Part shown: one piece after another, positions 2,703 through 61,055 of the stretch
Position numbering within the stretch: position 1 is the stretch's first letter
How the letters are laid out: each line of letters begins with the position of its first letter
From: a virus
Reading direction: 5' to 3' (one strand)
Virus record (IMG/VR): IMGVR_UViG_3300000216_000003
Span: 42,481 to 106,480 of that record
DNA length: 64,000 nucleotides
Made by a program: the position numbers and the translations under genes
Notes under the pieces: model-generated
The model's database searches: none
What the model was told of the DNA's origin: nothing
What the model saw: the letters and a program-made list of their open reading frames with translations, nothing else

Positions 2703-3041
2703 TTATGACCATTTTAAAATTAGTTTTGTTATTGTTTTTTGATCCAAAGATGATTTACCATCTTTAAGCCTCTGTATCCATTCAATTTTAGATATTTCTT
2801 TATCAATAATATACCATCTATCTGGATTATCATTATTAAATATTATAGCTGGTCCATCTTCTCTATGTAATAACCCATTATTAAACCAATATTTATTTCC
2901 TGTACTTGTATTTACAAAAGCATACCCATCTTCTCTATGTAGTTCTCCGTATGTATTTGTCCATATTAAATGGTCACCATCTTCATCAGTTTCACCTTTA
3001 AGATTAGGTGGATATATGTCAATTGTATAATGTTTACTCAT
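2703..3041 (-). CDS. LHREDGPA-repeat protein
   Basis: Two LHREDG(P/Y)A repeats; tail ITKLILKWS. Confidence 0.8.
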   Translation of the reverse strand: MSKHYTIDIYPPNLKGETDEDGDHLIWTNTYGELHREDGYAFVNTSTGNKYWFNNGLLHREDGPAIIFNNDNPDRWYIIDKEISKIEWIQRLKDGKSSLDQKTITKLILKWS

Positions 3042-3043
3042 TA

Positions 3044-3379
3044 TTAACTATTCTCCAGTATGATTCTGTTGATTGTCTTTTGATCCAGAGAGGATTTACC
3101 ATCTCTTAAGTATTGAATCCATTCATCTTTCGTTATATATTCACCATCAATATACCATTCATTAATATTTCCACTTTTCCAAATGCAAGCAGGACCATCT
3201 TCTCTATGTAACACGCCTCTACAATACCAATATTCGGCACCAGTTTTATAAATAATTGCTGGTCCATTTTCTCTATGAAATAATCCATCAGAATCAGTCC
3301 ATACACGATCACCATATTTACATTCATCCCCATTTAAATTGGGAATAAATAATTCTTCATCGTATATGTCATTTGGCAT
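3044..3379 (-). CDS. LHREDGPA-repeat protein
   Basis: HRENGPA/HREDGPA; tail INRIILENS. Confidence 0.8.
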   Translation of the reverse strand: MPNDIYDEELFIPNLNGDECKYGDRVWTDSDGLFHRENGPAIIYKTGAEYWYCRGVLHREDGPACIWKSGNINEWYIDGEYITKDEWIQYLRDGKSSLDQKTINRIILENS

Positions 3380-3699
3380 TAACTATGCTCCAGTATGAGT
3401 TTTAATTCTGTATTTCGACCTAAACTAGAGGCAGCTTCTTTAAGCCATTGAAGCCACTCATCTTTTGAAATATCTATTCCATAGACATACCATCTAAGAT
3501 CATATGATTCATCAACAGCTGGACCATCTTCTCGATGTAACCACCCATGATAGAACCAATTAACATGCCCATCTGGATATATAATAGCTGGACCATCTTC
3601 ACGATGCCATCTACCTTCAGAATCAGTCCATATCATATCTCCATCTTGGTCTAATTCACCTTTAATATTGGGTTTAGTGCGTACAGTTGTATTATTCAT
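3379..3699 (-). CDS. LHREDGPA-repeat protein
   Basis: Two HREDGPA repeats; tail LKLILEHS. Confidence 0.8.
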   Translation of the reverse strand: MNNTTVRTKPNIKGELDQDGDMIWTDSEGRWHREDGPAIIYPDGHVNWFYHGWLHREDGPAVDESYDLRWYVYGIDISKDEWLQWLKEAASSLGRNTELKLILEHS

Positions 3700-4004
3700 A
3701 TATTAAGACATTTCTTAATAGATTTAATAGCAGCTTCCATCTTTAGACGGGCAGAAGAATTAGCACTATGAACTTTTAATTTGGGGCATTTAAAACTTTT
3801 ATTTAAGTGTACTTGTTCTTCAATGTATAATAAAACATCATAACCAGTACCAATACCTTCATCGTCTCCTAAGTCATGATCTAAACTAATTACAGATATC
3901 CTTTCTGGATGTTTTAGTAATGTTATTACTTCTTTAGGGGTTTTTAATAGTATCCAAGTATTATCATATGGAGTTCTTTCATCATCGAGATATATTTTCA
4001 TCAT
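3696..4004 (-). CDS. Stand-alone divergent receiver-like domain (cyclic-phosphate-processing REC type)
   Basis: KIYLDDERTP, ISLDHDLG, TGYDVL, VHSAN signature. Confidence 0.7.
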   Translation of the reverse strand: MMKIYLDDERTPYDNTWILLKTPKEVITLLKHPERISVISLDHDLGDDEGIGTGYDVLLYIEEQVHLNKSFKCPKLKVHSANSSARLKMEAAIKSIKKCLNI

Positions 4005-4264
4005 GAATTCTCCAATATTAGACGAGTAATTTTATCAATTGAAATACTCGGATTACCAGATTTAAGCCATTGTATCCATTGTTTCTTAGTCATAATATTA
4101 CCGTGATTGTAATATATTTCGAATTTATTATTAGTAATCATAGCCGGGCCATCTTCTCGATGTAGTTCTCCTTTATCATCACACCAAATTAAACCACCAT
4201 CTACAGTAGCGACACCTTGTACATTACGACGACTATGTTTTATACTATCTTCATTAAATGTCAT
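4001..4264 (-). CDS. LHREDGPA-repeat protein
   Basis: LHREDGPA; tail ITRLILENS. Confidence 0.8.
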   Translation of the reverse strand: MTFNEDSIKHSRRNVQGVATVDGGLIWCDDKGELHREDGPAMITNNKFEIYYNHGNIMTKKQWIQWLKSGNPSISIDKITRLILENS

Positions 4265-6241
4265 GATTCCTCCAATATTAATCCAATTAATTCATTTCGC
4301 TCTTTTCTTGTTATATTTTTAATATTATCTAAAATATACCTAGCATCTTCTCCCCTCAATTCTGAAGTTTTTATATTTATAACAACTCCATTATCCCAAA
4401 TATTTAATAATCCATGCATAATATCTAATATTTTTCTAAAATCTAAATCATAATCATCAAACTCATTTGTAAAAATAGTTATATCCATATTACTAGAATA
4501 CTTATTCTCATCTAAACATACTCTAAATAATTCAGTTTCTAGTGTAATTTTGATCATTTTAGTAACATATGTAATAACTTTTTCTTCTGCCGCTTCTCGT
4601 CTCGATATCACGATTGCTCCAATAGATGTCTTCTGAGTGAATTCTCTTCTTCTGAAGAAAGATTTTTACTTCTATTTAACATATCTCTAGTTTGACAATT
4701 ATTCAATATATCTGCTCTAACTGATATATTTATTATATCAGCACCGAAAAATACATCAGGGTCTAGAATATCCCTCCTAATTATATTATACCAATATTCT
4801 GATATATTAATATAGGATTCAAAATTCAAATCTTTAATCGGTAGATACCGGATAGAAATAGCCGTAATATTATAATCTGTTGTTGTAGTATATTTTACTA
4901 TAAACAGATTAGATCCGATAGTCTTCTGAACTAGTTTTTTAACTTCTTTTATTAATTGATCAGTTGTCACGATTGTTCCAATAGATGTCTATTTAACATA
5001 TTAGTTTCTTTATTGGAAAGATTTGGTATTATTCGGAATATATCCATTATTTGTTTTTTCTCTAATATATTAGTATTAATAATTAAATGCTTAATTTTAT
5101 TATATGTTTTACTATCTCTAAACATATCTTCTATTTTATGTTTCAAATATTCATCAGTTGGAATAGTTCCAAGTAGAATATTACCTCTCATAATAGTAAT
5201 AACTTCAGATTGTAGATACCATATAGTTAAATACATAGTATTATTAATTCTAGAAGTATCTAATATGAAAAGTCGGTTGCCTAGTATATTTCGACATATA
5301 GTTCTTGTATTTCTAATTATCTCTTTTTCAGTCATGATTGCTCCAATATCACTCTATTTAATCTAATCGTTTCTTTAACTGTAATAGAAGGGATAGTATC
5401 TAAAAGATGTAAAACTGCTGCTTTATTTAATTCTTCAAACACTATCTTTATTCTAATCCCTCTCATATCTCCAGTTTGAACAATTGCACCTCTCATAATT
5501 GGAATCTTCCATTTTACAGAGTTTTGCATCATTCTTCGTTGAATAAACATACGATTATTAGAAGTATTAGCTTCATGATCTACAAATATTCGAATATAAC
5601 AATCAAATGGTTTAATACTGTTCCATTGTATTGTATGGTTATAATCGATTGCAAATAATCTATTTGGCAGTATCATTTTAGCTATCATAGTTACGTCATT
5701 TTTTATCTTATTTAATCTACTTAATCTAGATCTATATACTAATTCACCAGTCTCTCTAGGAGATATAAAAGGGGGTGTTGATATACTACGAGGCATAGCC
5801 GGTATTGCGAATACGGGTATTCCTGGTTCTATGATTGGATTTTCTTCATAAGACTTTATCCACATATCATGAAACGATTTTAAACTAAACATTCTAAGAA
5901 TCCTCCAATATTATACGAGTTAATATATTCTTTTCATAACTAGTAATATCATAAAGAGTATCAAGAAGAGATTGGGCTTCTTCCCTCCCCAATTTATTTA
6001 TGGTTATATCTTCTACTCTTGCTCTTTTATCTGTTATTCCAGTATTTATTAATTGTTGTAGATTGTATAATAAAACAACTGATATTGAATCTTTATTTAT
6101 ATGAGATATTTTAATTTTTACTTCATTATATTTTATACTTTTCTTTATCTTAAATAATCTAGTATTTGTCATTACTTCTATTATATAATACATACTATTC
6201 TTTATTGTATCTAAGTGAACCCTTTTTTGAGAAGATATCAT
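4261..6241 (-). other. Tandem array of five paralogous hypothetical genes (4261-4611, 4608-4970, 4967-5335, 5332-5892, 5894-6241)
   Basis: Shared N-terminal (R/N)LF motif and C-terminal L...N(I/L)(S/T)..E...L.R.(I/L)LE.S; stop/start overlaps. Confidence 0.75.
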
Positions 6242-6510
6242 ATATTTTCCAGTAATGCTTTAGTAATTATATTTAACGGCAACTTTGAATGTTTTTTAAT
6301 CCAATTTCTCCAATCTTCTTTACTAAGACTCCTCCCATGTATGTAAAATAGATCATCCTTATTAATATTTCCTCTTATAATAGCAGGGCCTTCTTCTCTA
6401 TGTAATTTCTTATCTTTTCTGTAATAACAATTACCAAAAGGATCAATATATTGTATATCTAGTGTTATCCTTGCTATCTCAGTTATTACTGTAATATCAT
6501 CCCGATCCAT
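6238..6510 (-). CDS. LHREDGPA-repeat protein, first gene of the operon
   Basis: LHREEGPA; tail ITKALLENI; promoter motif 6545-6556. Confidence 0.8.
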   Translation of the reverse strand: MDRDDITVITEIARITLDIQYIDPFGNCYYRKDKKLHREEGPAIIRGNINKDDLFYIHGRSLSKEDWRNWIKKHSKLPLNIITKALLENI

Positions 6511-6572
6511 ATTAACCCCTATATATAGAATGTGAATATATTGTATTATATCTATATAAGACGAAATAAAAA

Positions 6573-6599: not shown

Positions 6600-6605
6600 G
6601 GTAAA

Positions 6606-6851: not shown

Positions 6852-7249
6852 GCGACACGCATCAATAGACGATCGCTAAGGACTTTAGCGATACCTGAAT
6901 TAGTTTCTGCTAACTCAGTGTCTGATAAATATGGTAGAAGTTCAATAAAATTAGAACCAATACGAGTAAAGGTAACTGAGTGTTTCGAACTGTAGAAATC
7001 TACAGAGGATACCATATAACCAGAGCTCAACCACATTAGAGTATGGTAATGATGATATTTTCCAGGAGCATCTTTATCTGGATGTGGATCATTAGACCAG
7101 AATAATGCGTTCATATGATCAGTAGCGCTCTTAGGCAATGTAAATCCTAGAATATTCTCTAGTTCTTCCATTGATAATTTAACACGCTGTGTAGTCTTTT
7201 CAGAAAGGTAAGTATGTAATGGTTTGTATTTTGATTTAACCTTCGTCAT
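6848..7249 (-). CDS. Putative DNA-binding protein (SKY.PL..YL...LP.SA...W.N family)
   Basis: SKYKPLHTYL, ELENILGFTLPKSA, FWSN; related domain at the N-terminus of 7529..8287. Confidence 0.6.
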   Translation of the reverse strand: MTKVKSKYKPLHTYLSEKTTQRVKLSMEELENILGFTLPKSATDHMNALFWSNDPHPDKDAPGKYHHYHTLMWLSSGYMVSSVDFYSSKHSVTFTRIGSNFIELLPYLSDTELAETNSGIAKVLSDRLLMRVA

Positions 7250-11693: not shown

Positions 11694-13322
11694 TTACGCC
11701 CAGTACAGTTTATTATATCTAATTACATTTTCTGTTGGATCTCCAATCATTTCTATAGCATAAGGAGAACGTCTGCAAATAGCATATGCATTCTCTTCGA
11801 TTGGGGTATCTCTAAATTTTATTAATATATTTACCCAAATATTATCCCAATATCTCCAAGACTTATTATCTAATAATAATGTATATGCATAGGATAATCT
11901 CATTTTTAACTCCAATATAATTTATTATAGTTTTCGACTGCTGTTGTTGGATTCTTAATTACTTCTATAGTATGGTCTGCTACTCTACATATTTTATATG
12001 CATTCTCTTCAGTTGGTGTTTTCTCAAATTCTAATAGTAATAATTTCCATTTAATATCCCAAGAAGTATGTGGTGGTTCTTTTAACATTTGAACAAATTT
12101 ATCAGATAATTCCACTATTAACTCCAATATAATTTATTATAAGTTTCGACTGCTGGTGTTGGATCTTTAATATTATTAATAGATTTAGGAAAAAATTTAC
12201 AAACAATACATGCATTCTCTTCACTTGGTTTTCTGTGAAAATTCAATAAAGCTTGTTTATACCCCCTATTATTTCTTTTCTTCCTCCATTTTTTATTTAT
12301 AATCTTAATAGATTCTTCGGATAATTTCATTAAGACCACCACATCTTATGATATGTTATGACTGTTTCTGGGACATCTTTACAATACTTCAATATATCTG
12401 GATATACTTGTATTAATTTATTTATATCAGAAATTGATATATCTTCATACTTATATGATTCTTTATTCTTAAACCATTCATAATAACCATGTGAATTTAA
12501 CATAATATGTAGAGATGCTGTTAGTCTATTTTGACTATCGGGGATATAATCAACAGGACATTCAATAGTCGCTTTTTTTACCGTTGTATTTATTTGCATT
12601 ATACCTCCTGTAGTTTTATATATGTCTTTAGTTCTTGAGTAGGGTTTATAACCCAAGCATAGAATGTGTTGCTCCATGTTTGTTGTTCTGAATGTCTTTG
12701 TCTAAACATATGATATATATTTATAGCGTTTTCGAACGTTGGATCGGCTGCCATCTTAAAGAATCCGTCTCGCCATTCAATTTCATCTGGAGTGGTAGAG
12801 TGCCAGGATTGAGTAATTATGTCTTCTCGTAAGTGCATTAAGACTCCATTAGTTTTACGTAGTTGATTAGTTCTTGAGATGGGTCTTCGAACCAGGTGAA
12901 GAAAGAACCCTTATCCCATATATCATTATCGAAATTATTAATTTTATATTGGTATATATTTATGGCATTTTCGAATGTTGGATTATTGTGGAATATTAAA
13001 AACACTTCTTTCCAATCATCATGTTTCCATACATCTTCATCAACATCTATTAAATCGCAAAGTACTTCTTTTGATAATTGCATTAGGAATCCATTAGTTT
13101 TACGTAGTTGATTAGTTCTTGAGATGGGTCTTCGAACCAAGAGAGGAAGCCGATTGAAGTCCATGCGTTATTCTCAAAATGTTTCGATTTTAAATGATAT
13201 ATATTTATAGCATTTTCAAGTGTAGGCTCTTTCATAAATAATATAAAACTATTTTTCCATTCTGGATCAGTTTTCCAATAGCTATGCATTACTGTATTTT
13301 CTGTATCATGAGTTAGTTTCAT
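11694..13322 (-). other. Tandem array of seven small paralogs (about 11694-11903, 11906-12115, 12118-12330, 12330-12599, 12599-12838, 12838-13083, 13083-13322)
   Basis: Shared P(T/S).ENA motif (six of seven) and C-terminal P....(N/T)Y.KL.(W/E); several ORF-track starts are over-extended. Confidence 0.8.
12845..13139. repeat. 50-bp identical direct repeat (12845-12894 and 13090-13139) at the 3' ends of adjacent paralogs
   Basis: tccattagttttacgtagttgattagttcttgagatgggtcttcgaacca in both. Confidence 0.9.
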
Positions 13323-13487
13323 TATATTTTTCCTTCGTTAATTTATTTAGCTGTAAAAATACATTTTCGCTATATTTTATCAAAGATGAAGAAAATATAA
13401 ACGAAGATACATCAAACACGTCGTTGAGCCTCCCACGGCAAATGAAAAGATTAAATTTAAAACCCTTTCATTAAAATAATATCTATA

Positions 13488-14740: not shown

Positions 14741-15997
14741 ATGTGGATTGATGAGAATGATTTAAGAGTATTACATGTATATGATCTCGATCTATTTGAA
14801 CTTGGTCGATTACCGTCTGATAAACAAATACAAAATAATCCAGATGTTGTGTCAATGGAAGACTGCATAGAACTTTTAAACTATGTCGAAGTTGATGAAG
14901 ATGAAGCATTAGAATTAATCCGCAAGTGGAAGTTCACAATTAAATATATTGAGGAACCGACAATTGCAGTTACTAATTATCATACTCTATTATGGGAAGT
15001 TTAAATGATTTCAACTCAAGATGCTAGTGGTATCCATTTTACATTTGATAATAAATTTATATTAAGTATTCAATATGGATATGGTAATTATTGTGAGAAT
15101 AGAAGTGTTGATCAGACATTAGATAAGCCAGTTGATTATTTATCTTTAAATCACAAACCACATAAATCAATAAATGCTGAAATTGCTATATTGCATCAAG
15201 ATAAAGATATTAAATTCTATGAAAATAACGATATGATGACATTTGGCAGAGTTGCTAATGGATTAGATGATGAAGTAGCCGGATGGATCCCTACAGAGAA
15301 GATTATGGATGTAATGGAATGGGTAAGACGATTACCAACTACATATAGACATACTTGTGATATATTAGACTTTCCAATTAAAGGTAGAATAGTAGAAGAT
15401 GACTATCGGAATATTCTCTGGTACCCAAAACCATGGAATAATGAGTTAATATTTAAGGCTATTACTCAATCTGAGGATGCTATTCATTATATTGAATCAC
15501 CATCTATAGATATTCAAAATTATTATAAATTAAAATGGATAGTATAATGCATGTTAATAAAGTAGTATTAAATATTGCAAGAACTAAATTTAATATAGAT
15601 AGTAAACTTAAACATTTAGTACTTAATTTTAATGATAATCCAACTGAAGAGAATGCTTATGAATTTTGTCGCCATTATGAAATCACAATACCGTTATTTA
15701 TTAAGAACCCTACGGATAATGTTCGGAATTATCACAAACTCTTCTGGTCCTAAACAAATGACAGTTAGTCGATTGGTCTATCGTATGATGATTGAAAATA
15801 AACATGCTCCAAATGACCCTGGGACTATTTATTGGTCAACAAACGTTCCAGTTTCTAATACTGAAGTATTGAATATATTAGCATCTGATAGAGGCCTAAT
15901 GCAAAGTACTTTAATGAGTTATCTAAATAATCCAACTCCAGAAGTAACTAAGTTTTGGGAACGTGAACAATTATATAGGAAACTAAAAGAAGTATGA
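14741..15997 (+). other. Array of four genes with the NPT/Y.KL tail family (14741-15004, 15005-15547, 15547-15753, 15758-15997)
   Basis: Tails IEEPTIAVTNYHTLLWEV, IESPSIDIQNYYKLKWIV, IKNPTDNVRNYHKLFWS, LNNPTPEV...YRKLKEV. Confidence 0.75.
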
Positions 15998-28534: not shown

Positions 28535-29740
28535 GAACAAGGTTTACCCGCCCATGGAGCATGCTTACTTGGCTCTATTAATTTAACTCATTTTGTTAAT
28601 AACCCATTTAGTATTAATCCGCAATTTGATAGTGAAAAGTTTAAGAAAGTCATCGCTATTGCTACAAGATTCTTAGATAATGTTGTTGAAATTAATGGAC
28701 TCCCATTAGATGAGCAACAGAAAGAACTATATAGAAAACGCAGACATGGTCTGGGTATTGCTGGACTTGGAAGTACACTATGTATGTTAAAAACTAAATA
28801 TGGCTCACCAACTGCTATTAAATTCACAGAAAAAATAACTAAGATTATGGCAATTCAAAGTTATGAAACTGGTGTTGAATTAGCAAAAGAAAAAGGTGCT
28901 GCTCCTATTTTACTTGAAACATTTCCAATTAATTTTGAAATTGAAAATCGTTTAGAAGAAGCTGGTATGGATTCTGACTATATTAGTTTAAGTTCTCCAA
29001 AAGAAGGGGAAGTTAAAGGTAGTTGGCTTATGGCATCTTCGAAGTATTTTAAAGATTTTCCAAAACAGTTAGTAGATGATATTGGAGCATATGGTTGTAG
29101 ATTTAGTCATGCTACTAGTATTGCACCAACAGGTACTATTAGTTTAAGTTTCTTTAATAATTGCAGTAATGGAATTGAACCATCATTTAGTCATTATTAT
29201 CAACGTAATATTATTAAAGAAGGTAAAAATACTAAAGATATGGTAGATGTTTATAGTTATGAAATTCTAAAATATAAAGAATTTCTAGATAATACTGATA
29301 ACCCCCATACAGTAGTAGATAATAAGATTGAAGATATTATTGCTAATGGATTACCTGATTACTTTGTAGCTGCGCATGATGTTTCTCCAAAAGAACATAT
29401 TGATATGCAAGCCGCAGCTCAACGATGGATTGATTCAAGTATCAGTAAAACTGTAAATATCCCTACTGATTATCCATATGAGAAATTTCAAGATTTATAT
29501 ATGTATGCTTACGAACAAGGACTTAAAGGATTAGCAGCATATAGACATAATCCTGACGGTGGTCAAGTAGGCGTATTAGTAAAGAAAGATGAATTAGCAA
29601 AGCAGAAATATAGATTTAATCTTGAAGATGGTTCAACTGTTGAATTATCTGGTGATGAAGAAATTGAATATGATGGACAAATGCATAATGTTGCAAATCT
29701 TCACGAGTCACTAAAAGAAGGGTTGTATGGCAAAATGTGA
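28535..29740 (+). CDS. nrdJa: Class II ribonucleotide reductase NrdJa, exon 2
   Basis: EQGLP..GACLLGSINL, RRHGLG, SIAPTGTISL, SNGIEP, DSSISKT; C-terminus EEIEYDG...LKEGLYGK typical of split NrdJa. Confidence 0.93.
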   Translation, partial: EQGLPAHGACLLGSINLTHFVNNPFSINPQFDSEKFKKVIAIATRFLDNVVEINGLPLDEQQKELYRKRRHGLGIAGLGSTLCMLKTKYGSPTAIKFTEKITKIMAIQSYETGVELAKEKGAAPILLETFPINFEIENRLEEAGMDSDYISLSSPKEGEVKGSWLMASSKYFKDFPKQLVDDIGAYGCRFSHATSIAPTGTISLSFFNNCSNGIEPSFSHYYQRNIIKEGKNTKDMVDVYSYEILKYKEFLDNTDNPHTVVDNKIEDIIANGLPDYFVAAHDVSPKEHIDMQAAAQRWIDSSISKTVNIPTDYPYEKFQDLYMYAYEQGLKGLAAYRHNPDGGQVGVLVKKDELAKQKYRFNLEDGSTVELSGDEEIEYDGQMHNVANLHESLKEGLYGKM

Positions 29741-30356
29741 TCATTCTGATCTATTGAGCCTTGATGAAATGCCTTCGGCTTCGGTCGAAGGTACTTCTGA
29801 AAATAATGATTATACTTTAGAAATTAAAGGGAAAACAATATATATTCCAAATACTCATCTTGTTGGTATTGGATTAATATGTTCAATGATTGATATTAAT
29901 GGTTATCCTATGTATAAATCATTAAAGAGAAATGGCCCAGTATTGGATCAAGTTATAAAAAAACAGATATTAACAGTATTACTAGAAACTGAATCCGAGT
30001 CTAATTTTAAAAATGAAATAACTAGAGAATTATTGGAGTTAAATTAAATGTTAGAAATAGGCGGTTTTAAAGTACAAGCGAATGGTAGAATATTAATTTA
30101 TAGTACCCCGTCTGGGCGAAATAATGGAATATATAAAGCTATGATACAAAGAATGTCTGTCCGGGAAATACGTGAATCTATTGATAATTGTTTATATGGA
30201 ACTGGAGATAGTATGATATATGGTATATTAACAGAAGTTATTTATAGAATCCATAATAATGCAGATAAAATACTTGTTATTAAAGGGGTATCTCCTCATA
30301 TTGAATCATCTAAATATAAGAATAAAATTACTAAACAATTATTGGAGTTAAATTAA
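29727..30356 (+). other. Two hypothetical genes (29727-30047, 30048-30356) with shared C-terminal tail
   Basis: KNEITRELLELN / KNKITKQLLELN; 23 identical nt at 30028-30050 and 30337-30359. Confidence 0.7.
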
Positions 30357-30820: not shown

Positions 30821-31081
30821 ATGACTCACCCAAATGGACCAGTTTTTTATATAAACACTGAATATGCACTTCCCAATATATTAACTGAACAAGAAAAAAA
30901 AGCATATATTAATATTATATTATTTGCAAAAAAAGATAAAAAGAAATATGATATGTTGACTCTTATTACTCGTGAATGTCGAAATAAAGATAAAAAAGAT
31001 ATGTTAACACTTTTATATTCACATATTAAGAAGAATAAAATCAAAAAACTCATTCTAAAAGATATAAAGGAATTATCATGA
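30821..31081 (+). CDS. Basic hypothetical protein
   Basis: AAGGA SD; internal KDKK..DMLTL repeat. Confidence 0.65.
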   Translation: MTHPNGPVFYINTEYALPNILTEQEKKAYINIILFAKKDKKKYDMLTLITRECRNKDKKDMLTLLYSHIKKNKIKKLILKDIKELS

Positions 31082-37411: not shown

Positions 37412-38166
37412 ATGATGATGTTATTTGAACTAGAAAGATCTATTGCTCGAGATTTAAAAGAAAATCCGGATGATTGGGTATTTGATAATGAAGAAACTGG
37501 TGAAGGTGGATGTATAGATATTCAATATAGGCCACATTCAATATATAATAAAAATAAAGATATGTATGTATGGATATGTAACGGATTCTTTTTTTACTGT
37601 ATATCTGCACTGGGTGGGAAGACAGTGCAAAGATTCTCATTAATTGGAAAACTAATTTTTGCAATAGCTTATTTTAAATGGCAAAGTAAGAGAACTATAA
37701 CATATAAATATCTTATAAAATTATATAAAAACCACTATGCTGTAAGTAAAGATGATCTATTAACTAGATTTAAATAGGGGTTGATATAATGTCTACTCGA
37801 TTACGACAAGAACTTATAACTCAAATTGAAAGATTCAAAGAACATAATAATACAAATTATTACGGTAGTGGACCCGCTTATTTTGATCTTATATCTAAAC
37901 CTAAAAAAAATATTTTTATTAATATAAGTAGACGGGCTGAAAATATAAATATTAATGGAATATATTACAATACGTATGTTGACATTCTTTATACTATTGT
38001 GTTTTGTAGTAGCCGCAAAACAAAAATATTTGAAACTAAAGACTTTAATAAATTATGTAATAAGCTAGCCCGTCATAAATTAACAACCCTTGTTACTGAT
38101 GATTTTAGACGGCAATCAAATCGAATTGAAGCTGAAATCATATATAATAAACTAAAAGAGGTGTAA
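37412..38166 (+). other. Two hypothetical genes (37412-37777, 37789-38166)
   Basis: Follow promoter 37380; the second ends IIYNKLKEV. Confidence 0.65.
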
Positions 38167-39959
38167 TGAATAAAGAACAGCTGCAGGAGGCTATTAAATA
38201 TCATAATAGATTATACTGGGAAGATAACAACCCAGAAATAACAGATATTGAATATGATTCCTTAATAAACCAATTAAAAAGTATCGATCCAACTAATTAT
38301 TTAGTAGTAGATGTTGATGGACCTATTGCGGTAGGAGACACTATTAAACACCCTAAAATGATGCTATCTCTTGATAAAGCATTTAGTCTAGAAGAGATAC
38401 TTAAATGGGGGAGTAAAATTATTAGGTCTCCAAAAGAAAAATTTAGTCTTTCTCCAAAGTTCGATGGTATTGCTAGTACATATTATCATAAGAAACAATT
38501 ATTAGTCACTAGAGGTAGAGATGGATTACATGGAGAGAATGTAACTCATAAATTACCACTTATTGATCTTGAATCAGATCAAGATGCTGCTTCTACTGAT
38601 ATAATTGGAGAAGTATTAGTAAAAAAATCTGAATTTAAAAATACTAAAGCAACCCGCAAGAGCGGTGAACCATTTAAAACTGAACGGAATATGGCAGCAG
38701 GTATAATGACTCCTGCTAGAAAAGATACAGCAGAATTAATTGGTATTGTAAAATTAACAATGGTTGATTATAAGAAGTTTGAAATATCAACGGAATATCA
38801 ATATTTAGAGAAGAATTGGGAAACTATAGTTGAGCGATTTAAAGACTCTGATTATCCTTTAGATGGGGTAGTTATTCGAGTTACAGATGAACAGTATCAT
38901 GAATCTCTTGGAGTCACATCCCATCATCCTCGAGGATCGATTGCTTTTAAATTTAATGATAATAGTAAACGTACTATTGTTAGAGATATTAAATGGCAAG
39001 TTGGACGAACTAGAAAACTAACACCTGTAGCCGTTATAGATCCTATTGTTGTTAATGGAGTTACTATTGAAAGTCCAACTTTACATAATGCTAAACGAGT
39101 CATCGACTTTAATCTCCATATTGGAGATATTGCATATGTATCAAGACATGGTGATGTTATTCCACATGTTGATAGTATAGAACCGGGAGATAATAGGGTT
39201 CCAATTAAGATTGATAATTGTCCTAACTGCGATGGCGCTTTAGACTATCAAGAGCCAGAATTATACTGCTTGAATTTAGATTGTGGTGGCTCTCTCGTAC
39301 GACAACTAGTACATGCAGTAAAGACAGTTTCTATAGAAGAACTAGGCGAACCTACAATTCAGAAGATGGTAGATGACTTAGAAGTTAAATCATTAGCAGA
39401 TATACTATCATTAGAATATGAGGATATATTAACCCTTGACGGCTTTGCTGAGACATCTGCCAATACATTATATGATAATATTCAGTTAGTTATTAAGAAA
39501 GTGGAAGATTGGAAGATTTTGGCAAGTTTAAATATTAAAGGTATAGGTAAGACTTTAGCTAAACAATTATTCTCTAAAATGACGTTTAGTGAATTGACAA
39601 ATTTATCTCTTGAAGAATTAGAAATGCAACCAAACTTTAGTTTTGAAAGAAGTTATACCTTAATTAAAGGGTTAGAAGAAAATTCTGAACTAATCGGTGA
39701 ACTATATGGATTGATGAGTGTAGTTAATACTAAATTAACAGCAGCCGATACTAGAAAAACTATATGTTTTAGTGGAAGTCTTCCTCAAAAGAAGTCATTC
39801 TATAAATCAATCGCCGATACTAAAGGATTGAATGTAGTAGCTAGTGTGACAAGTAAATTAACGTACTTAGTATCATCTGGTGAACAAACCTCTAAATTGG
39901 ATAAAGCTCAGAAGAGAGGCATTCCAATTCTAACAATTGAAGAATTTCTAGAATTGTAA
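38166..39959 (+). CDS. ligA: NAD+-dependent DNA ligase
   Basis: YHNRLYW..NPEITD.EYD, MLSLDK, KFDG, DGVV, AFKF, zinc finger, HhH, C-terminal BRCT. Confidence 0.96.
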   Translation: MNKEQLQEAIKYHNRLYWEDNNPEITDIEYDSLINQLKSIDPTNYLVVDVDGPIAVGDTIKHPKMMLSLDKAFSLEEILKWGSKIIRSPKEKFSLSPKFDGIASTYYHKKQLLVTRGRDGLHGENVTHKLPLIDLESDQDAASTDIIGEVLVKKSEFKNTKATRKSGEPFKTERNMAAGIMTPARKDTAELIGIVKLTMVDYKKFEISTEYQYLEKNWETIVERFKDSDYPLDGVVIRVTDEQYHESLGVTSHHPRGSIAFKFNDNSKRTIVRDIKWQVGRTRKLTPVAVIDPIVVNGVTIESPTLHNAKRVIDFNLHIGDIAYVSRHGDVIPHVDSIEPGDNRVPIKIDNCPNCDGALDYQEPELYCLNLDCGGSLVRQLVHAVKTVSIEELGEPTIQKMVDDLEVKSLADILSLEYEDILTLDGFAETSANTLYDNIQLVIKKVEDWKILASLNIKGIGKTLAKQLFSKMTFSELTNLSLEELEMQPNFSFERSYTLIKGLEENSELIGELYGLMSVVNTKLTAADTRKTICFSGSLPQKKSFYKSIADTKGLNVVASVTSKLTYLVSSGEQTSKLDKAQKRGIPILTIEEFLEL

Positions 39960-40204
39960 TGAATATAATACATGAATATAAAGAAAGTATTAGATCATAT
40001 ATAACTAATATAACTAAAGATGGTGGCTATTGTGGTGGAATGGAATCATATGTGATTGTCTATATTAAAAATAATAAAGATGAAATTATATATGAAACAG
40101 ATGGGTCAACACTTAAAGAAGCTTATCAAAAAGCACTAAACTTATACGGTTTGCCTCCTAAAATTAAACATAAATTACAAAAACTTATTTTAAATATTAT
40201 TTAA
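39959..40204 (+). CDS. Hypothetical protein
   Basis: Coupled ORF; tail KHKLQKLILNII. Confidence 0.65.
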   Translation: MNIIHEYKESIRSYITNITKDGGYCGGMESYVIVYIKNNKDEIIYETDGSTLKEAYQKALNLYGLPPKIKHKLQKLILNII

Positions 40205-41563: not shown

Positions 41564-42170
41564 TTTATTTGATATAGATATAATAGAGTTTAACGGCAAT
41601 ATTGGGAGATAATCGATGCTAACCAGATCTGAAATATATAAAATAGTATGTTTGATACCAAGTGAAGAGTGGCAGGAATTCATTAAGACTGTGCATTATA
41701 AGTATGATATATCAGATGACTATACTACTTGGTCTCAAACTCTTGCAGAGAGTCCAGATATCAAGGATATTAGTACTGCTCTATTAAAGCTAAAACTAAG
41801 ATATTCATAATAGGTTGGAGATAAGTCAATGACTGCTGAAGATGTTTTTGATGTACTAAAAATTGTTAAATCTGAAAGGTGGGCGGAATTTACTGATTAT
41901 ATTGTAGATAATTATGAAGTTGATAGAGATAGCACTACTTGGATAGAGGCGTTATCAAAAAGTCCAGATCATGAATTAATTCATAAAGAGTTATTGCGTT
42001 TAAAATTAGAAGTATGTTAATGACTGAATTAGAAATTGCTAATCTAATTATAAATTTACCAATTACAGATACAAATTATGAAGAATGGCATGATTATATA
42101 TGTGGATTGTTTAAAATTTATAATATTCAAGGCACTGGGGCTTATAGTTTTGAAATTTATAAATCTATTC

Positions 42171-42607
42171 ATAAAGAAAAACTAATTAGGGATATAAACA
42201 GATGGAAACTTCTACACTCATGAAACACGAATCGTTTGAACCTCAAAACGCTGAAGAACAGGTAAGGATGTTCAGAATTATTGCTACACGATTAATTGAA
42301 ACCGATGAACGATTTAAAGACTCTAAAATTTTCATAGAAAAGGTTAATGATGAGAACTATGTTTTCGGATTCACTGTTAAAAATGATAATATACTTGATT
42401 TGGTTCTTAATGATTTCTTTGATGAAATGTTTGAAGAAAAAGGTCCATTTCACGATGCTGAGTTTATATTCTCTGGGGACCTCGATGCTGCCCCAGACTA
42501 TATTGAAAAAAAGAATAGCTATAGTTTTGCCATGAGAACCCTCTGGTAGAAATATAAAGAAAAAGTAATTAGTGATATATTAAGATGGAAACTTCTACAC
42601 TCATGAA
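42171..42607 (+). repeat. 54-bp direct repeat (42171-42224, 42554-42607; 49/54 identical, last 25 nt identical)
   Basis: ...agatggaaacttctacactcatgaa in both; a third related copy at about 42783-42806. Confidence 0.9.
42220..42549 (+). CDS. Acidic hypothetical protein unrelated to the surrounding array
   Basis: MKHESFEPQ...AMRTLW*; flanked by 54-bp direct repeats. Confidence 0.7.
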   Translation: MKHESFEPQNAEEQVRMFRIIATRLIETDERFKDSKIFIEKVNDENYVFGFTVKNDNILDLVLNDFFDEMFEEKGPFHDAEFIFSGDLDAAPDYIEKKNSYSFAMRTLW

Positions 42608-45193
42608 TCATATGTCGGAAAAGAAACTTGAAAAATTAATAATGACAATTCCAAGTGGTAGGGATTGGCATTCATATATCTTCGAACTATTCAAACAATA
42701 TAATATTACATATACTAAACCACCATACAGTGAACTAATCTGGAACTCTCATCATCGTGAATCAATTATTAAGGATATACTAAGATGGAAACTCCTGCAC
42801 TCGTAACTCTTCAAGAATTCAAAAATATGTTCTATAAACATGCTAGTGCTGTTCATAATTGGACTCCTAAATATAAATATGATGATGAACTGCATATGGC
42901 AGTCGCAACTTATATAATGGATGGTAGAGATAGAAGTACTTCATTATATAATAGCAGTAAAAAAGATTTGTTTATTCAAGATATGTTAAAAGTTAAATTA
43001 GAGAGGATTTAATGGATATATCATCTGAAGAAATTAAAGATTTAATAGATGATATATCTTTTCCTAAATGGTATAGGTTTATCTCAGATGCTCATATTAT
43101 CTATGATGTTGAATGGAATGGCCATTCATGGAGTAGTTCATTTATGGAAAGTAAGGATTTTAAACTTATTATTAATGAACTAATGCGTATAAGATTATCG
43201 GAGATATAATGTATGTTTCAGACGAAGAAATGATAGATCTAATAATGGATATTGATGAAGATGATTGGCGATTTTTTCTTCCTCGTATTAGTGATGAGTA
43301 TAATATAATATTTAACAATAAGAACTGGAGTAGTTCATTTAGGGAAAATAAAAATTTTAAATATATTGTTAATGAATTAAGACGAATGAGGTTATTGAGA
43401 TCATGACCACTCCAAGTCGAAAAGATTGGGAACAATTATGCGATTCTTTTTATAAGAGAGCTAGTCATCTTAATAGGATAAATAAAGGCACCAGTCATTG
43501 GAATATATTTTGGAAAAATATGGCTATTTATTATAATATTACTCGCCCATATTCAATTAATAGTGTACCAGATTCTCCAATATTTAAAAAGATATATAAT
43601 CATATGTTAAAGGCTAAGTTGGAGTTAGAGTAGTGAATATAAGTGATCAAGAGATTAATAAATTGATACATAATATTTCTAGCGCATTGTGGGATTTCTC
43701 GTTTGATGGAGATGGTGATAAAAAATGGTTGGAGGTTTTAGAATATATTCAATGGGAATATGGAGTAACTTTTATGGTTGATAGATATCTTATTGATGAT
43801 TTTAAAGCTTCTGGTAATATGAAACAAATAATTCAGTATTTAAATAAAAAGAAATTGGAATTGTTATGACATATGATGAAATTAGAAAATTAGGATTGGA
43901 TATATGTCAGAATTTTAAAGGAGATACCGAACTTAAAGATTTTGATTTGTATCTACAAACGAAATATGGTATATGGGACTATGAATTATTCTTTCCAGCT
44001 GATCAGATATATGATCACTGTGAAGTATCTAAAATAGTTAATGATATGTTGAAATTTAAATTGAGTTTATTATGACATTTAATGAATTTATGCTTCAAAT
44101 TAGTGTTATTCGAAAATCAACACACTATCTTAATTGGTGTAGGTTCGTAAAAAATCTAGAAACTGATTATCCAAAAATCAGATTCTCATTATATGGAGAT
44201 GAAAGATGGGTCGAATTATATGGTTCCCCTCAATTTAAAGAAGTATATAATAAAATAGTGAAGTTTAAATTGAGCCTATCTTGACTAACTTAGATATTGA
44301 AAATTTAATAAGAACTATCTATGAAAATTTTAAAGGTGGTTCGGGGCTACAAGATCTTGAAACCTATTTAAACAATGTTTATGGTATTTGGGATGATAAT
44401 ATATATTTTCCAATAGAACAAATATGTAGCCATACAGAAAAAAATAAGATAATCAAGGATTTATTAAAATTTAGATTAGGGCAATTATGAATATTTCAAT
44501 AAAAGAGCTTGATAAATTAATATTTTGGATTTTAAATCGAGTTACTATTTCAATAGAGGTTTTGGATGAATTAGATGAAGAACTTAGAAGGGATTATAAT
44601 ATCTGGTCTGATTATGATTATTTACCAACAGATCAGATAATACAGAACCCAAAAAAAGAACAAGTGATTCAGAGGTTACTTCAATTTAAACTATTATACT
44701 CATAACTGGAATTAATATGACGCCTAAAGAATTTTTTGAGTTTCGAATTAGTATATATGATTCTTTTGAATATGGAGATAGAAAATGGCATATATTTAAA
44801 AGTAAGTTGTTTAAGAAGTTAAACTTAAAAGAACCGGATAATTCAGATGATTGGGATAATCTAATATTAACACCATATTTTGATTATATAATTAAAGAAT
44901 TCTTAAGATTTAAATTGGAAAATGCATGAACTATCAAGATCTTCTTGATCTATATGGGGATATAAATGCTGGATTATCACCTGGTGAATCTTATATATTC
45001 TGGTCTAATTTAGCACGAAAATATAATCTATACTCACCATCTATTTATATAATACTTGAAAGCATGGATAAAGATAAAATAGTTAAAGATTTATTAAGAC
45101 AGAAATTGTTATTATTATGAAGAGCTTAAAACTAAAATACAGTTAAACTTAGACCTATTATTAATTTAATAGGTTTTATTTTCAGGAGTAGTT

Positions 45194-51512: not shown

Positions 51513-52380
51513 GAAAGCCAGATGTAAACTATGGATATAGAATCGGTGTATTAGATGATAAAAATTGTTTATTATATGGTACTACTGAAGATTTAAAAAT
51601 TACAAAAGAAATGGCTCAGACTCGGCTATTTAAAAATTATAAATTTGAAAATTTTTTATATATAGATTGTACTAAATATGAAATAGAAGATAATTTTAAA
51701 ATTAGCCCGGGAAAATATACTAAAATAAGTAAACAATTCGCAATTCCAGATTCCTCTATAATTGTTGAATTATATTCGGAATTACATATACCAACTAATA
51801 TAGATTTAAATACATTTGAATCATATTTCGAATCTAGAATTCAAACACTATGGAACACATATTCAAGTTTAAAGAAATTAGATATTGAGAAATGGAAAAA
51901 AGTATGTGCACATTTCTTTATCTATGAGAATAAATACACATATTTTAAACTAACTCCTTCATCTGTAAAAAGATTATATACTCTGCTTAATACATTTAAA
52001 GAAAACAATAACCCAAATCATAAAGATATATCTGAAAAAACTACTGAATTACATAATTTATTATTAAATATACAATCTAAAATACCAAATATAGTTAAAG
52101 ATGATAATCCATGGGTATTAAGTGATAATAAAAATATCCCAGCGCCGATATATTATAATATGACATTAGATGGGGTTTTTTCACAGTTACCAATAAGTTT
52201 AAAAATAGTAGTGGGCAAATTACCCCATTAAAAGCATATTACAGAGTTGGTGACATTCGTAAATATATAGAACCTAAACAAATGATTAATACTACACAAT
52301 TTGTTTCGTTTCTTATTAATCAGAATTTATATACGAAAGTTATTAATAGACTAACAAAGGAATTATTGAAAATTACATGA
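51509..52380 (+). pseudogene. Frameshifted hypothetical gene (0 frame stops at 52231; -1 frame continues to 52380)
   Basis: -1 frame open from about 52159 to a TGA overlapping the next ATG; ends INRLTKELLKIT; GGGGTTTTTT at 52172-52181. Confidence 0.6.
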
Positions 52381-53243
52381 TTTATCCCCACTTAGGGCTT
52401 TTTTGTTTAATAGAAAAGCAAAAAGTAAAAGTGTTCTATTCGATTCCAGGATTTCACACTTCGTTATCAGATATCAAGAAGATAACGAAGTGTGAGGATC
52501 TCACTGAATATTCGACTAGTGATTTAAATGTGTTAATACCCAAGTATATGACCTTTAAATTAACAAATAAACAGCTAAATATTAATTATAGTTTTTATAT
52601 TAAAAACTCAAATGTATTAATTAAATTTGATAAAGTATTTAGCATTAGCAAACTAAAATTCGGAGAAGCCGAATCTTTTATTTCTAAACAGATTTCAAAT
52701 CTAAAAAAAATTAGAAAACAATTAAATGCTATTTCAAACTGGTTAGATATTATTAAATTCATTTCAAATAAAGATAATGATATATATACTATATTTGATT
52801 TATCATATAATAGAATGCCTCATTTCTTAAAATTCATAGATAATTGTCATATTAATAAATTTAAAAAATATTATGATATTGATAGTAATGAATGTTCTGA
52901 TGAGTTTAAAAAAGAGTCTGAAGAATGTGTTACTCTTATATATAAATTAATGGATCGTATTATGGAGTCAACTGAAATATCTTTTAGTGGTTATGGGGGT
53001 ATTGCTTTTTATATAGAAAAAACTCGGAATAACGGAATAATACGTTCTCATTTTAAAAAGGCATGGGCAACAGCTGAAGATGCCTCTTTTGGATATAAGC
53101 CTATTAGCCAATCTACTGAAGAATTTACACATGAATATAACTTACCCAGAGAAATATATAAATATCTAGCTTATTATAAAATGATAGGAAGTTTAGATAA
53201 ATTTAAACATAAACTACAACAGGAAATCTTAAAACTAATATGA
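52377..53243 (+). CDS. Hypothetical protein
   Basis: 288 aa; tail KHKLQQEILKLI. Confidence 0.75.
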   Translation: MIYPHLGLFCLIEKQKVKVFYSIPGFHTSLSDIKKITKCEDLTEYSTSDLNVLIPKYMTFKLTNKQLNINYSFYIKNSNVLIKFDKVFSISKLKFGEAESFISKQISNLKKIRKQLNAISNWLDIIKFISNKDNDIYTIFDLSYNRMPHFLKFIDNCHINKFKKYYDIDSNECSDEFKKESEECVTLIYKLMDRIMESTEISFSGYGGIAFYIEKTRNNGIIRSHFKKAWATAEDASFGYKPISQSTEEFTHEYNLPREIYKYLAYYKMIGSLDKFKHKLQQEILKLI

Positions 53244-55949: not shown

Positions 55950-55961
55950 TATAGGTTATAT

Positions 55962-57830: not shown

Positions 57831-57839
57831 GTAAATGAT

Positions 57840-58940: not shown

Positions 58941-59002
58941 TTGATTATTATATATAGATATTATAATCTATAGAACCGTCAATAAATAGGAGAACTAATA
59001 CT

Positions 59003-59847
59003 TTGCTTAATCCATTTCAAATTGTTTCAGAAGAGAAGAATCCACCTGAAAATGATGGGTTCTTCCACTTCTTATTGGAACATACTGGATATACACCAGA
59101 ACAAGGCTATCGATTAAAAGATGGTCACCTCACAGATAGTGGGGACTTTAATTGCACAGTTGAACATGTATTACAAAATAATAAAATTCAAATTTATCTA
59201 TCTTCAGATTCGATTATTAAGATAATTGAAAATGGTTAGATAATACATTCACGGGAGCAGAATTAATGATCGAACAACTATTTCAAATGCCATCTATGGA
59301 AAAGCAAGAAAATGGCGATTACACATATCCAACTAAATATACAAATAAACTATTTAAATCTGGGGATACACTTGTATTCTTTAATCTAAATTCAACAACT
59401 GAATACCCAATTGGATTATATAATTCTGTTTCTGAAGCAATTAAAAAAGACATACTAGACTCTCAACAAGAAGAATTATCAAGTATCGACGCATCTATTA
59501 ATACATTAACATCTGATTTTGAAGACGTTGCTTCTGACACAAAAGATTTTAATTCATCAATATCTAAATTAAGAAATGATCTAAGTGTAGTACAGAAAAA
59601 TCTAGATAGAGTAGAAAGTACTCTTACTCATGTTCAATCGAAAGAAGAAATTCAAGAGGTTATTAGAACTGAAATGGCGGCCGTAAAAGATAATTTTGAT
59701 AGTGTAATGAAAGAAGCGATTAAGAAAGAAGCTGAAAAACTCTTAGCTGATTCAAAAAAAGTCGATCCTATGACTATTCTAATGATGACGAAGCAAGGAA
59801 TGGATATGAAAGATGTGATTGATTTAGCTAAGTCTGGGGTATTGTGA
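59003..59847 (+). other. Two hypothetical genes (59003-59239; 59266-59847 coiled coil)
   Basis: Promoter 58953; SD sequences. Confidence 0.65.
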
Positions 59848-60433
59848 TATTAGAACAGTTTCAAAATACTTGTCATTTTATAATGATGAATCCACATCCT
59901 ATTGATAATAATGAAATACATATTCCATTATCGGATAAATATGATTTAAAATTAAGCACTCTATATATGAGAGGTGGAGCTGTCCCGTTTCCTTATATTA
60001 GATATTGGAATAGATATAGGAAACTATATCAAGTGTTTAATATTCATGGGTATGTGGATATTTATAATTGGTTAATAGAGAAAGAGTTACTAACTCCATC
60101 TCTTACAAATGAGTTAGTAAAATACAAACTGGAGAGGTTATGACTCAGTTTGAATTTCAGGAAGTATGTGATTTTATATTCACAAAGATTAAATATCCAA
60201 AACATATGATTATTCCTTTAAATGAAAAACATGCTATATATGTCGATTCTGCACATTCTACTATGTGGGGCACTTATCCAGCTGTTTGTATTAAAGAGAT
60301 TTTAACCCAAATATGTATAGAAGATACTACTACTGGATGCTATCAGAGTGTTTATGGATATATATTAGATAATGCTGATAAAATAAATGACATATATAAT
60401 GAGTTGTTAAAAAAGAAATTGGAGTTATCATGA
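59844..60433 (+). other. Two paralogs (59844-60143, 60140-60433) of the F..C.FI...IPL family
   Basis: Tails NELVKYKLERL and NELLKKKLELS; third member at 60771-61055. Confidence 0.75.
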
Positions 60434-60774
60434 AAACTATTATAGCTGGAAGTCGTACAATTACTAATCTTGGTACTATATATAAAGCAGTAAATGGTGC
60501 CGGATGGTTTATTACTGAAGTTGTTAGTGGTATGGCTAAAGGTGTCGATTCTCTTGGTGAGCGATGGGCAAGAGAAAATGGTGTACTTGTACGTCAATTT
60601 CCTGCTAATTGGGATCACTATGGTCGGAAAGCAGGGCCAATTAGGAATAGTCAAATGGCGGACTATTCTGATGCTTTAATCGCAGTATGGGATGGTAAAA
60701 GTAGAGGTACTAAACATATGATCTATGATGCTAAAAATAAAGGGTTGAAAACATTTGTATATAGAACACTATGA
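60430..60774 (+). CDS. SLOG-superfamily (YspA/DUF2493-like) protein
   Basis: IIAGSR, VVSG.AKGVD, AGPIRNSQM, WDGKSRGT.HMI. Confidence 0.85.
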   Translation: MKTIIAGSRTITNLGTIYKAVNGAGWFITEVVSGMAKGVDSLGERWARENGVLVRQFPANWDHYGRKAGPIRNSQMADYSDALIAVWDGKSRGTKHMIYDAKNKGLKTFVYRTL

Positions 60775-61055
60775 CTTTTTTTGAATTCTTTGATACTTGT
60801 AAGTATATATTAAATAATATGGATTTAGATGATAATATAGAAATAACACTAAATAAATATCACTCATTTCATTTAAATCCATTATTCGCTCATAGTAATA
60901 CTGGCCCACTCCCATATATTAAACATTTTAATATAGAAACAGAAGAATATCGTATTATGACTGAATGGTCTACAAAAAATATGCATCAATATATTGGAAA
61001 AGATAATAAAAAATTCGATATAGAACTTCTGAGACATAAATTGAGAATAAAATGA
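60771..61055 (+). CDS. Paralog of the 59844/60140 family
   Basis: EFFDTCKYI...ITL..., tail ELLRHKLRIK. Confidence 0.7.
   Translation: MTFFEFFDTCKYILNNMDLDDNIEITLNKYHSFHLNPLFAHSNTGPLPYIKHFNIETEEYRIMTEWSTKNMHQYIGKDNKKFDIELLRHKLRIK

Follow-up and report, generated by a model that had tools for sequence, protein, structure and literature searches.

A register-locked C-terminal helix on unrelated small proteins of an uncultured jumbo phage: a possible address label of a kind not described before

Why should many small phage proteins, whose bodies cannot be aligned with one another, end in the same short helix? The question is raised by a 64,000-nucleotide stretch of viral DNA (the window; bases 42,481-106,480 of the 106,480-bp virus record IMGVR_UViG_3300000216_000003, ~30% G+C). 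An initial annotation had proposed that about 40 small proteins encoded there share a C-terminal amphipathic helix, here called the tag, and that this might be a docking or targeting signal. An identical copy is present on contigs of up to 284.6 kb, so the record represents about 40% of the genome of an uncultured jumbo phage. We called 206 non-overlapping open reading frames (ORFs) across the 106-kb record (G000), 121 of them in the window. The calls are greedy and were made for this analysis, and the tails depend solely on the stop codons. All counts for G000 cover ~41% of the phage genome.

When the 206 C-termini are aligned on their last residue (position -1), Leu(-4) is found in 83, Lys/Arg(-7) in 81 and Ile/Leu(-9) in 91. 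The consensus ending is phi-K-N-x-[IL]-[TNQ]-[KR]-x-[IL]-L-E-x-S-stop, carried by 60-66 of the ORFs. A strict pattern of [ILMVF](-9), [KR](-7) and [LM](-4) occurs at 60 of the 206 C-termini against 0.86 expected from internal 9-mers, so that the sharing of a C-terminal helix by unrelated small proteins is more extensive than first reported. Scores from a 14-column position-specific scoring matrix (PSSM) are bimodal: 65 proteins score at least 8 bits, about 126 score below 0 and few lie between. Within the window 33 of the 121 genes are tagged, all inside 2703-61055, and a looser 'NPT' dialect adds about nine genes, which bears out the original figure of about 40. The example tails quoted in the annotation are all present at their ORFs.

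The motif is locked to one register. When the PSSM was limited to positions -14 to -4, excluding the last three residues, the motif lay in 63 proteins with exactly three residues after it and at offsets 0-2 or 4-8 in none, and only five of 30,049 internal windows matched. Trained on tags outside the window, a PSSM picks out 24 of the 121 window C-termini at 8 bits or more compared with 4 of 17,833 internal windows, and training on the window also succeeds in the reverse direction. Since the cross-validation works both ways, the similarity across arrays is not circular. The tag is present in none of the 218 shadow ORFs that were discarded. The sole strong internal tag-like stretch (KKIKQLTKWLLNPS, residues 18-31, 11.3 bits) is in a 478-residue protein with no Pfam family encoded outside the window (L002:7607-9040, minus strand; genome 27604-29040). 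It may be the remnant of a tagged gene that was fused to the next gene.

The tag belongs to small proteins. It is found on 61 of the 148 proteins of up to 150 residues and on 2 of the 32 proteins of at least 250 residues, neither of which has a Pfam domain, and it is on no protein with a recognisable enzymatic domain; the core enzymes do lack it, as claimed. The tagged genes lie at ~12 genomic locations of G000. Clustering of the bodies by iterative hidden Markov models, with the last 16 residues removed, gave 7 small clusters and 48 tagged singletons. Global body identity is 0.25-0.26, the background level, within arrays, between arrays and against untagged proteins, while the tails are 34% identical within arrays, 25% between them and 8% to untagged tails. 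No recurrent family was found when 76 tagged proteins were compared with Pfam and PHROGs; among the larger tagged proteins the only Pfam match was DUF7662, on one loosely tagged gene, and a 330-residue tagged protein matched only unnamed clusters in the ESM Atlas. The tagged bodies are not a single paralogous family.

The features of the window are as follows.
2703..6510 (minus): array of 10 tagged genes, with tails ...[IL]-[TN]-[KR]-x-[IL]-L-E-x-S
2703-3041, 3044-3379, 3379-3699, 4001-4264 and 6238-6510 (minus): five genes of this array with LHREDGPA/MORN-like bodies
4261-4611, 4608-4970, 4967-5335, 5332-5892 and 5894-6241 (minus): five genes of this array with other bodies
3696-4004 (minus): untagged cREC_REC gene (PF20274) inside the same array
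11694..13164 (minus): five genes of the NPT dialect, ending P-[TS]-x-x-[VI]-x-x-Y-x-K-[LM]-x-W-S, with Lys(-5) and Leu/Met(-4)
14741..15997 (plus): three more genes of the NPT dialect, beyond the strand switch, with tails ...YHTLLWEV, ...YYKLKWIV and ...LYRKLKEV
24992-25297 (plus): phage ClpS homologue (PF02617, E 6e-32), untagged and not part of the tag
29727..30356 (plus): two adjacent tagged genes of 106 and 102 residues with dissimilar bodies and tails ...FKNEITRELLELN and ...YKNKITKQLLELN
30821..31081 (plus): 86-residue gene with a tag-like stretch four residues inward (IKKLILKD followed by IKELS)
37789..38166 (plus): 125-residue gene ending ...EIIYNKLKEV, an NPT-like dialect with Lys(-5) and Leu(-4)
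39959..40204 (plus): 81-residue tagged gene ending ...KIKHKLQKLILNII, more than 66 nt from the next gene
41616..45120 (plus): family C, 15 tagged paralogues of 63-78 residues ending ...[LM]-[LN]-[KR]-x-[KR]-L-x-x-x
42202-42549 (plus): unrelated, untagged acidic gene inserted in the family C array
52377..53243 (plus): 288-residue tagged protein ending ...KFKHKLQQEILKLI, with Gln(-7), 9.5 bits and no Pfam domain
59844..61055 (plus): three tagged paralogues of 99, 97 and 94 residues ending ...LVKYKLERL, ...LLKKKLELS and ...LLRHKLRIK
60430-60774 (plus): untagged SLOG/YAcAr gene (PF10686) between these paralogues
6545-6556 (minus), 13476-13487 (minus), 14690-14701 (plus) and 41573-41584 (plus): example sites of a promoter-like 12-nt motif, TATAGATATWAT

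The two genes at 29727..30356 score 18.4 and 12.1 when their own array is left out of the training set. In the family C alignment Leu(-4) is the sole invariant column. The tail of the 288-residue protein at 52377..53243 is close to that of 39959-40204, and the bodies of the two are unrelated. The NPT ending at 11694..13164 is a family-specific C-terminal region that is only loosely related to the main tag, and in the genes at 14741-15004 and 15005-15547 the Leu is followed by one residue more, so that the NPT dialect is not strictly register-locked.

Is the tail selected as a protein, or does it follow from the way in which these genes are packed together? The initial annotation had noted that the next gene's Shine-Dalgarno sequence (SD) and start often lie inside the tail. 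Taken to its end, this would make the whole tag a by-product of translational coupling and AT-rich composition: the SD/ATGA overlap would fix L-E-x-S, and the helix periodicity and a Lys(-7)-Glu(-3) salt bridge would arise convergently. The codons do carry a trace of the SD. TTG and CTG make up 33 of 64 codons (52%) at -4 compared with 12% genome-wide, and GAG:GAA at -3 is 24:13 compared with 18% GAG genome-wide, so codon -4 is strongly biased towards a third-position G and codon -3 towards GAG, as the by-product explanation would have it. Only these two codons show SD-driven synonymous choice. The third positions of codons -13 to -8 hold 0.02-0.13 bit, Lys/Arg(-7) uses eight codons, Ser(-1) uses TCN (29) and AGY (5), and Leu(-4) itself uses five Leu codons (TTG, TTA, CTA, CTG and CTT), ~40% of them being TTA or CTA, which the explanation does not account for.

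The tagged genes that lie more than 40 nt from the next gene are informative in this respect. All ten retain Leu(-4) and the core of the tag, but Glu/Asp(-3) is found in 3 of 10 compared with 57%, and Ser/Thr(-1) in 3 of 10 compared with 55%, in genes with an overlapping or adjacent start. The SD therefore explains Glu(-3) and Ser(-1) in part but not the Leu, and what the annotation said of the last residues is half right. Conversely, packing does not create the Leu where there is no tag. Among untagged G000 genes with an overlapping or adjacent downstream start Leu(-4) occurs in 6 of 68, and in 80 metagenomic loci around RNA polymerase (RNAP) beta homologues (20-36% G+C, 1140 ORFs) it occurs in 37 of 384 such ORFs (9.6%). 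The strict pattern was found 6 times against 5.4 expected in these 80 loci, and the C-terminal profile is flat across the 1140 ORFs. One related phage (G002, described below) is tag-free genome-wide. The stops of the tagged genes are TGA in 32, TAA in 31 and TAG in 3; the start-stop geometry varies and the three-residue rule is constant. Taken together, the tail is conserved as protein and not as DNA, and is no by-product of AT bias or of the SD, an explanation that is almost certainly wrong. The next gene's SD is overlaid on the tag and favours Glu(-3) and Ser(-1) without creating it. The data show a portable, register-locked, protein-selected helix module on unrelated folds, into which the SD is fitted by synonymous codons.

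The annotation had offered a DNA-level junction cassette as an alternative, in which a conserved gene end and next start form a recombination site for gene shuffling and the peptide is incidental. There is one clear case that looks like this. A 57-nt direct repeat (42171-42227 and 42554-42610, plus strand, 89% identical) brackets the unrelated gene 42202-42549 and encodes the family C tail together with the overlapping next-gene start METSTLM. The frame of 42202-42549 runs through its own TAG stop into the second copy of the tail. Since a TAG lies three residues after the end of three tags, it is a genuine stop codon in this genome; the tail of this gene has been cut off by the stop or was never joined. 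The arrangement at 42171-42610 could reflect gene insertion at the junction, tag loss by a nonsense codon, or readthrough. The repeat shows that a foreign body can be placed before an existing tail. As a general explanation the cassette fails at the other junctions. All-versus-all blastn of the 93-nt junctions of 66 tagged genes gave only matches of 15-33 nt, without exception in register, which shared amino acids and codon bias would produce; third positions are unconstrained, and Arg and Ser switch between unrelated codon families. Nucleotide similarity of the tails goes no further than these 15-33 nt, which leaves no room for a general DNA cassette, and it is scarcely plausible that one drives the pattern. 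New members would arise by tandem duplication with rapid divergence of the body, and also by recombination that sets new bodies before an existing tail.

How far beyond this phage does the tag extend? The window encodes the split beta and beta' subunits of multisubunit RNAPs, an NAD-dependent ligase, ribonucleotide reductase, ThyX, dUTPase, topoisomerase II, clamp-loader subunits, RNase H, QueC/D/E and homing endonucleases. Its RNAP beta is only ~23% identical to the subunits of AR9/PBS1-type jumbo phages (tblastn), and two stretches of the window had no megablast match among GenBank phages. Searches of IMG/VR for related loci with the single ligase protein and with the LHREDGPA alignment both returned nothing. 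A complete 314,837-bp IMG/VR phage with terminal repeats (G001) has an RNAP beta that is 36% identical to that of G000. In this genome the pattern h-x-[KR]-x-x-[ILVM]-x-x-x-stop is present on 78 of 522 ORFs compared with 4.8 expected. The dialect is different, [IML]-Q-K-[YFL]-[LIV]-[IL]-E-x-[LIV], and the last residue is hydrophobic in 96% of tags. The register is kept: 77 tags lie at three residues and 2 at four, compared with matches in 21 of 90,720 internal windows. The two dialects recognise one another. The G000 PSSM finds 18 G001 C-termini at 8 bits or more compared with 19 of 90,720 internal windows, and the G001 PSSM finds 12 G000 C-termini compared with 4 of 30,049. The 66 tagged G000 bodies have no detectable homologue among the 522 G001 proteins; one tagged protein of G001 has a DUF7448 body.

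The 95%-complete, 285,572-bp relative G002 gives a different result. The tag pattern is found on 5 of its 454 C-termini against 4.2 expected genome-wide, and the G000 and G001 PSSMs score 0 and 1 of the 454 at 5 bits or more. Two partial relatives have no tag. In the RNAP beta tree G000 and G001 fall in different, fully supported clades and the tag-free G002 groups with G001, so the tag would be ancestral and then lost, or would have been transferred. Judged from these genomes, the tag is lineage-specific yet common to two deeply diverged phages in different dialects. The cREC_REC (3696-4004) and SLOG (60430-60774) genes of the window have homologues in G001 and none in G002, and the G001 SLOG gene (228678-229139) likewise adjoins tagged genes. 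In a relative of clade I that lies near G000 on the tree, a 93-residue ORF (L012:19454-19735, plus strand) ends LITLLRKEILLRS and scores 15.8 bits; this phage, of which 22 kb is seen, probably has the tag too. The locus with the highest RNAP beta identity to G000 (L004, 48%) has three small ORFs flanking RNAP beta (5216-5404, 6909-7136 and 9074-9286) that end ...EExLLxx[FL], which may be another dialect of the tail.

Closer relatives of single families tell the same story at shorter range. P0114, an orthologue of the 146-residue family (60% identical), retains the tag. A profile of family C finds only 27 proteins among 1.84 billion representatives, 24 of them of 63-78 residues, and the ten family C homologues outside this genome all keep a hydrophobic residue at -9, Lys/Arg(-7), Lys/Arg(-5) and Leu(-4) followed by three residues. 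The close relatives of the LHREDGPA proteins, P0002 and P0003 (55% identical, on a 284-kb contig), have a nearly unchanged tail, but LHREDGPA-repeat proteins from elsewhere (P0004-P0011) end differently and without it.

What kind of structure does the tail form? AlphaFold2 models the family C protein at 44281-44487 as a four-helix bundle (predicted local distance difference test, pLDDT, 90.8), in which the tag forms the final helix at residues 54-68. The LHREDGPA protein at 3044-3379 is modelled as beta hairpins followed by two helices (pLDDT 89.3), with the tag as the last helix, residues 100-110. Foldseek against the PDB gave MORN1 and junctophilin as the best matches to the latter, weakly (E 0.13-0.5) and with no Pfam match at E 0.01, and nothing for family C. 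On these models the tag would be carried by at least two different folds, MORN-like beta repeats and a four-helix bundle, which agrees with the claim that the bodies do not align.

To describe the helix itself we computed column information with each array weighted equally. Leu(-4) ranks first with 3.3 bits (96% Leu), followed by Lys/Arg(-7) with 2.7, Leu/Ile(-9) with 2.1 and Asn/His(-11) with 1.7; Ile/Leu/Lys(-5), Glu(-3), Ser(-1), Thr/Gln/Asn(-8) and Lys(-12) come after these in that order, Glu(-3) being present in 49% of 66 tags. Projected on an ideal helix, the hydrophobic moment lies at ~5-15 degrees (positions -13, -9, -6/-5 and -2) and the conservation moment at ~122 degrees (-11, -8, -7, -4 and -1), ~110 degrees away. 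This geometry suggests a packing face and a separate conserved stripe. The module would be 14-17 residues long, consisting of an N-cap Ser/Thr and then a 13-residue helix at the extreme C-terminus.

One use for such a helix would need no external reader. It could be a structural capping or oligomerisation helix, inherited in one explosively diversifying superfamily, by which tagged proteins may dimerise or assemble with each other; the three residues after the Leu would be the minimum needed to finish the helix under genome compaction. The AlphaFold2 tails are ordered and of high confidence in both models, and the 63-78-residue family C proteins have only four helices including the tail, so that their fold needs it. 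The array-specific dialects are as expected from descent, and the paralogy of family C extends over the whole length. However, the best-conserved positions, the basic residue at -7, Asn/His(-11) and the Leu, lie ~110 degrees off the hydrophobic face and are not packing positions. The helix also closes MORN-like beta proteins, and homologues of these elsewhere do without the tail; the rule is absent from related phages whose composition and gene layout are the same, and the bodies have been fully turned over between G000 and G001 while the tag was kept. This is the main rival explanation, and we regard it as unlikely, though by no means negligible.

We favour, with a probability of roughly 0.5, the reading that the tag is a portable C-terminal module whose conserved stripe and free C-terminus are read by one common partner. 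The face formed by -13, -9, -6/-5 and -2 would pack the helix onto its own body, and the stripe of Asn/His(-11), Thr/Gln(-8), Lys/Arg(-7), Leu(-4) and residue -1, with the free carboxylate at a fixed distance, would be read by a host machine or a phage hub. Different bodies would then be handled as one class, to be delivered, stabilised, removed or assembled together. Purifying selection would hold the module on a large, fast-turning-over library of small accessory proteins, and its bearers would be a clade of roughly 300-kb phages with multisubunit RNAPs. A reader that grips the tag and the free C-terminus would let new bodies plug into an existing pathway by recombination before the tail. 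A wider proposal, that the phage clade runs an addressing system in which helix tags in different dialects mark a hypervariable set of 60-80 small effectors per genome for one co-evolving reader, is more tentative.

Several points weigh against the common-partner reading. We have found no common reader. Paralogy probably accounts for the arrays, and the tag would have been acquired independently far fewer than 66 times. Loss or transfer has to be assumed, since G000 and G001 are not sisters on the RNAP beta tree. The two-face argument is drawn wholly from ideal helix geometry. Finally, the tail helix has a pLDDT of ~91-97 in both families modelled and may be an ordinary structural helix. The idea of the initial annotation that a library of variable domains plugs into one partner is therefore only partly supported: the protein-level module on different folds, kept across deeply diverged phages, stands, but no reader was found and the modelled tail is ordered rather than floppy.

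If there is a partner, where would it act? The promoter-like motif TATAGATATWAT has 33 matches in the window (up to 1 mismatch) compared with 11 expected, and is found upstream of both the small-gene arrays and the enzyme operons. Capsid loading, one of the roles first suggested, is unlikely because the arrays use the promoter motif of replication genes, and nothing in the data points to the phage compartment that was also suggested. A membrane is another candidate destination, to which a targeting amphipathic helix of the MinD/FtsA type would bring the small proteins. The tag is C-terminal and amphipathic with Lys/Arg, and tails such as LLKFKLSLL, LLRQKLLLL and LQKLILNII look like such helices. 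Membrane-targeting helices are usually disordered off the membrane, and here the AlphaFold2 pLDDT is above 90. Glu(-3) is present in about half of the tags, Asn/His(-11) and Thr/Gln(-8) lie on the conserved stripe, and membrane helices do not keep a register of exactly three residues. In view of these conserved Glu, Asn and Thr residues and of the order predicted for the helix, we consider membrane targeting very improbable.

A search for a reader by presence in G000 and G001 and absence from G002 gave four genes, ThyX, cREC_REC, ClpS and SLOG, none of them convincing. ClpS is encoded in both tag-bearing genomes (24992-25297 in the window; 32805-33044 in G001) and not in the 95%-complete G002. 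It is the sole lead to a partner, and a weak one from three genomes only. It would fit a specific version of the common-partner reading, in which the tag is a C-terminal degron: an AAA+ protease of the host, whether ClpAP, ClpXP or Lon, would receive early accessory proteins and remove them at a set time, with its activity tuned by the phage ClpS. A C-terminal signal in a fixed register, with the free carboxylate as part of it, is typical of degrons (the ssrA and MuA tails), and the hydrophobic last residue of the G001 tags points the same way as the co-occurrence of ClpS. But that co-occurrence is seen in three genomes only, ThyX, cREC_REC and SLOG share it, and ClpS reads N-termini, not C-termini. 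The last three residues (E-x-S in G000, E-x-[LIV] in G001) are unlike LAA-type or RRKKAI-type motifs, and Ser is the commonest last residue in this phage. ClpP was found in none of the five records, and the phages encode neither ClpP nor ClpA. A degron is thus an improbable explanation.

Some features of the window lie apart from the tag. There are several RNAP beta/beta' pieces (19394-22447, 54672-55949 and 57840-58940), comprising a 1017-residue subunit and split pieces, which correspond to the two RNAP sets that typify this group of phages. An HNH/NUMOD endonuclease gene is upstream of the split pieces, and 53504-54658 sits between RNAP pieces. At 8825-10309 (minus strand) there is a 494-residue radical SAM protein with a 200-residue N-terminal extension to which no role is assigned; it is distinct from the QueE-like enzyme of the genome.

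Much of every large phage genome consists of small ORFan genes, whose study one by one is nearly impossible. If the common-partner reading is true, a third of the small genes of this phage work through one common route, and the reader would give a handle on dozens of proteins at once, with a natural peptide for pull-downs, localisation and controlled stability. The change of dialect between two diverged phages, together with a tag-free relative, makes this a question open to comparative genomics and to tag mutants.

How does the tag compare with known systems? In the phage literature that we could search nothing like this tag is described, and it looks like an address label for proteins that has so far gone unnoticed. 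The C-terminal degrons (ssrA LAA, MuA RRKKAI) and the ClpX-binding peptide of SspB are likewise register-locked to the free C-terminus, and the phage encodes the Clp adaptor ClpS; the sequences are unlike, and known degrons are unstructured whereas the tag is modelled as an ordered helix. Clamp-binding tails include those of T4 gp43, gp33 and gp55, which bind gp45, the PIP-box Qxx[LIM]xx[FY][FY] and the bacterial QL[SD]LF. In these systems, too, short C-terminal peptides of unlike proteins meet on one hub; the phage encodes clamp-loader subunits and the G001 dialect has Gln(-8). Clamp systems, however, have few, DNA-related clients, and the tag is on 60-80 small ORFan proteins. The 66 G000 tags have no Gln column and no aromatic pair at -2/-1, the G001 tag has Gln(-8) with a polar residue at -2 and an aliphatic one at -1, and the 106-kb record yielded no clamp gene.

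The PRANC domain of poxvirus ankyrin proteins, of ~40-50 residues, has F-box homology and Skp1 as its partner. PRANC proteins and the cellular F-box and SOCS-box adaptors, in which a variable body binds the target, resemble the tagged proteins in having a variable body and a conserved C-terminal element, and in forming expanded, fast-evolving families in one virus genome. The tag is different in being 14-17 residues long with no detectable homology to anything, and neither PRANC (PF09372) nor F-box is among the Pfam matches of the 76 tagged proteins. For the clamp peptide, PRANC/F-box, the ClpX/ClpA degron and the MinD/FtsA helix alike, the tag lacks the defining sequence features. Finally, the Dot/Icm substrates of Legionella have a C-terminal translocation signal with hydrophobic residues at -3/-4 and a Glu-rich 'E-block', which is degenerate and disordered. 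Dot/Icm is a bacterial type IV secretion system, in contrast with the tag, which is a defined helix with Leu(-4) on phage proteins of 60-150 residues and implicates no machine for export or injection. The likeness lies in the arrangement: many unrelated proteins of one genome carry a short signal that is counted from the C-terminus, and in the Dot/Icm system one machine reads it.

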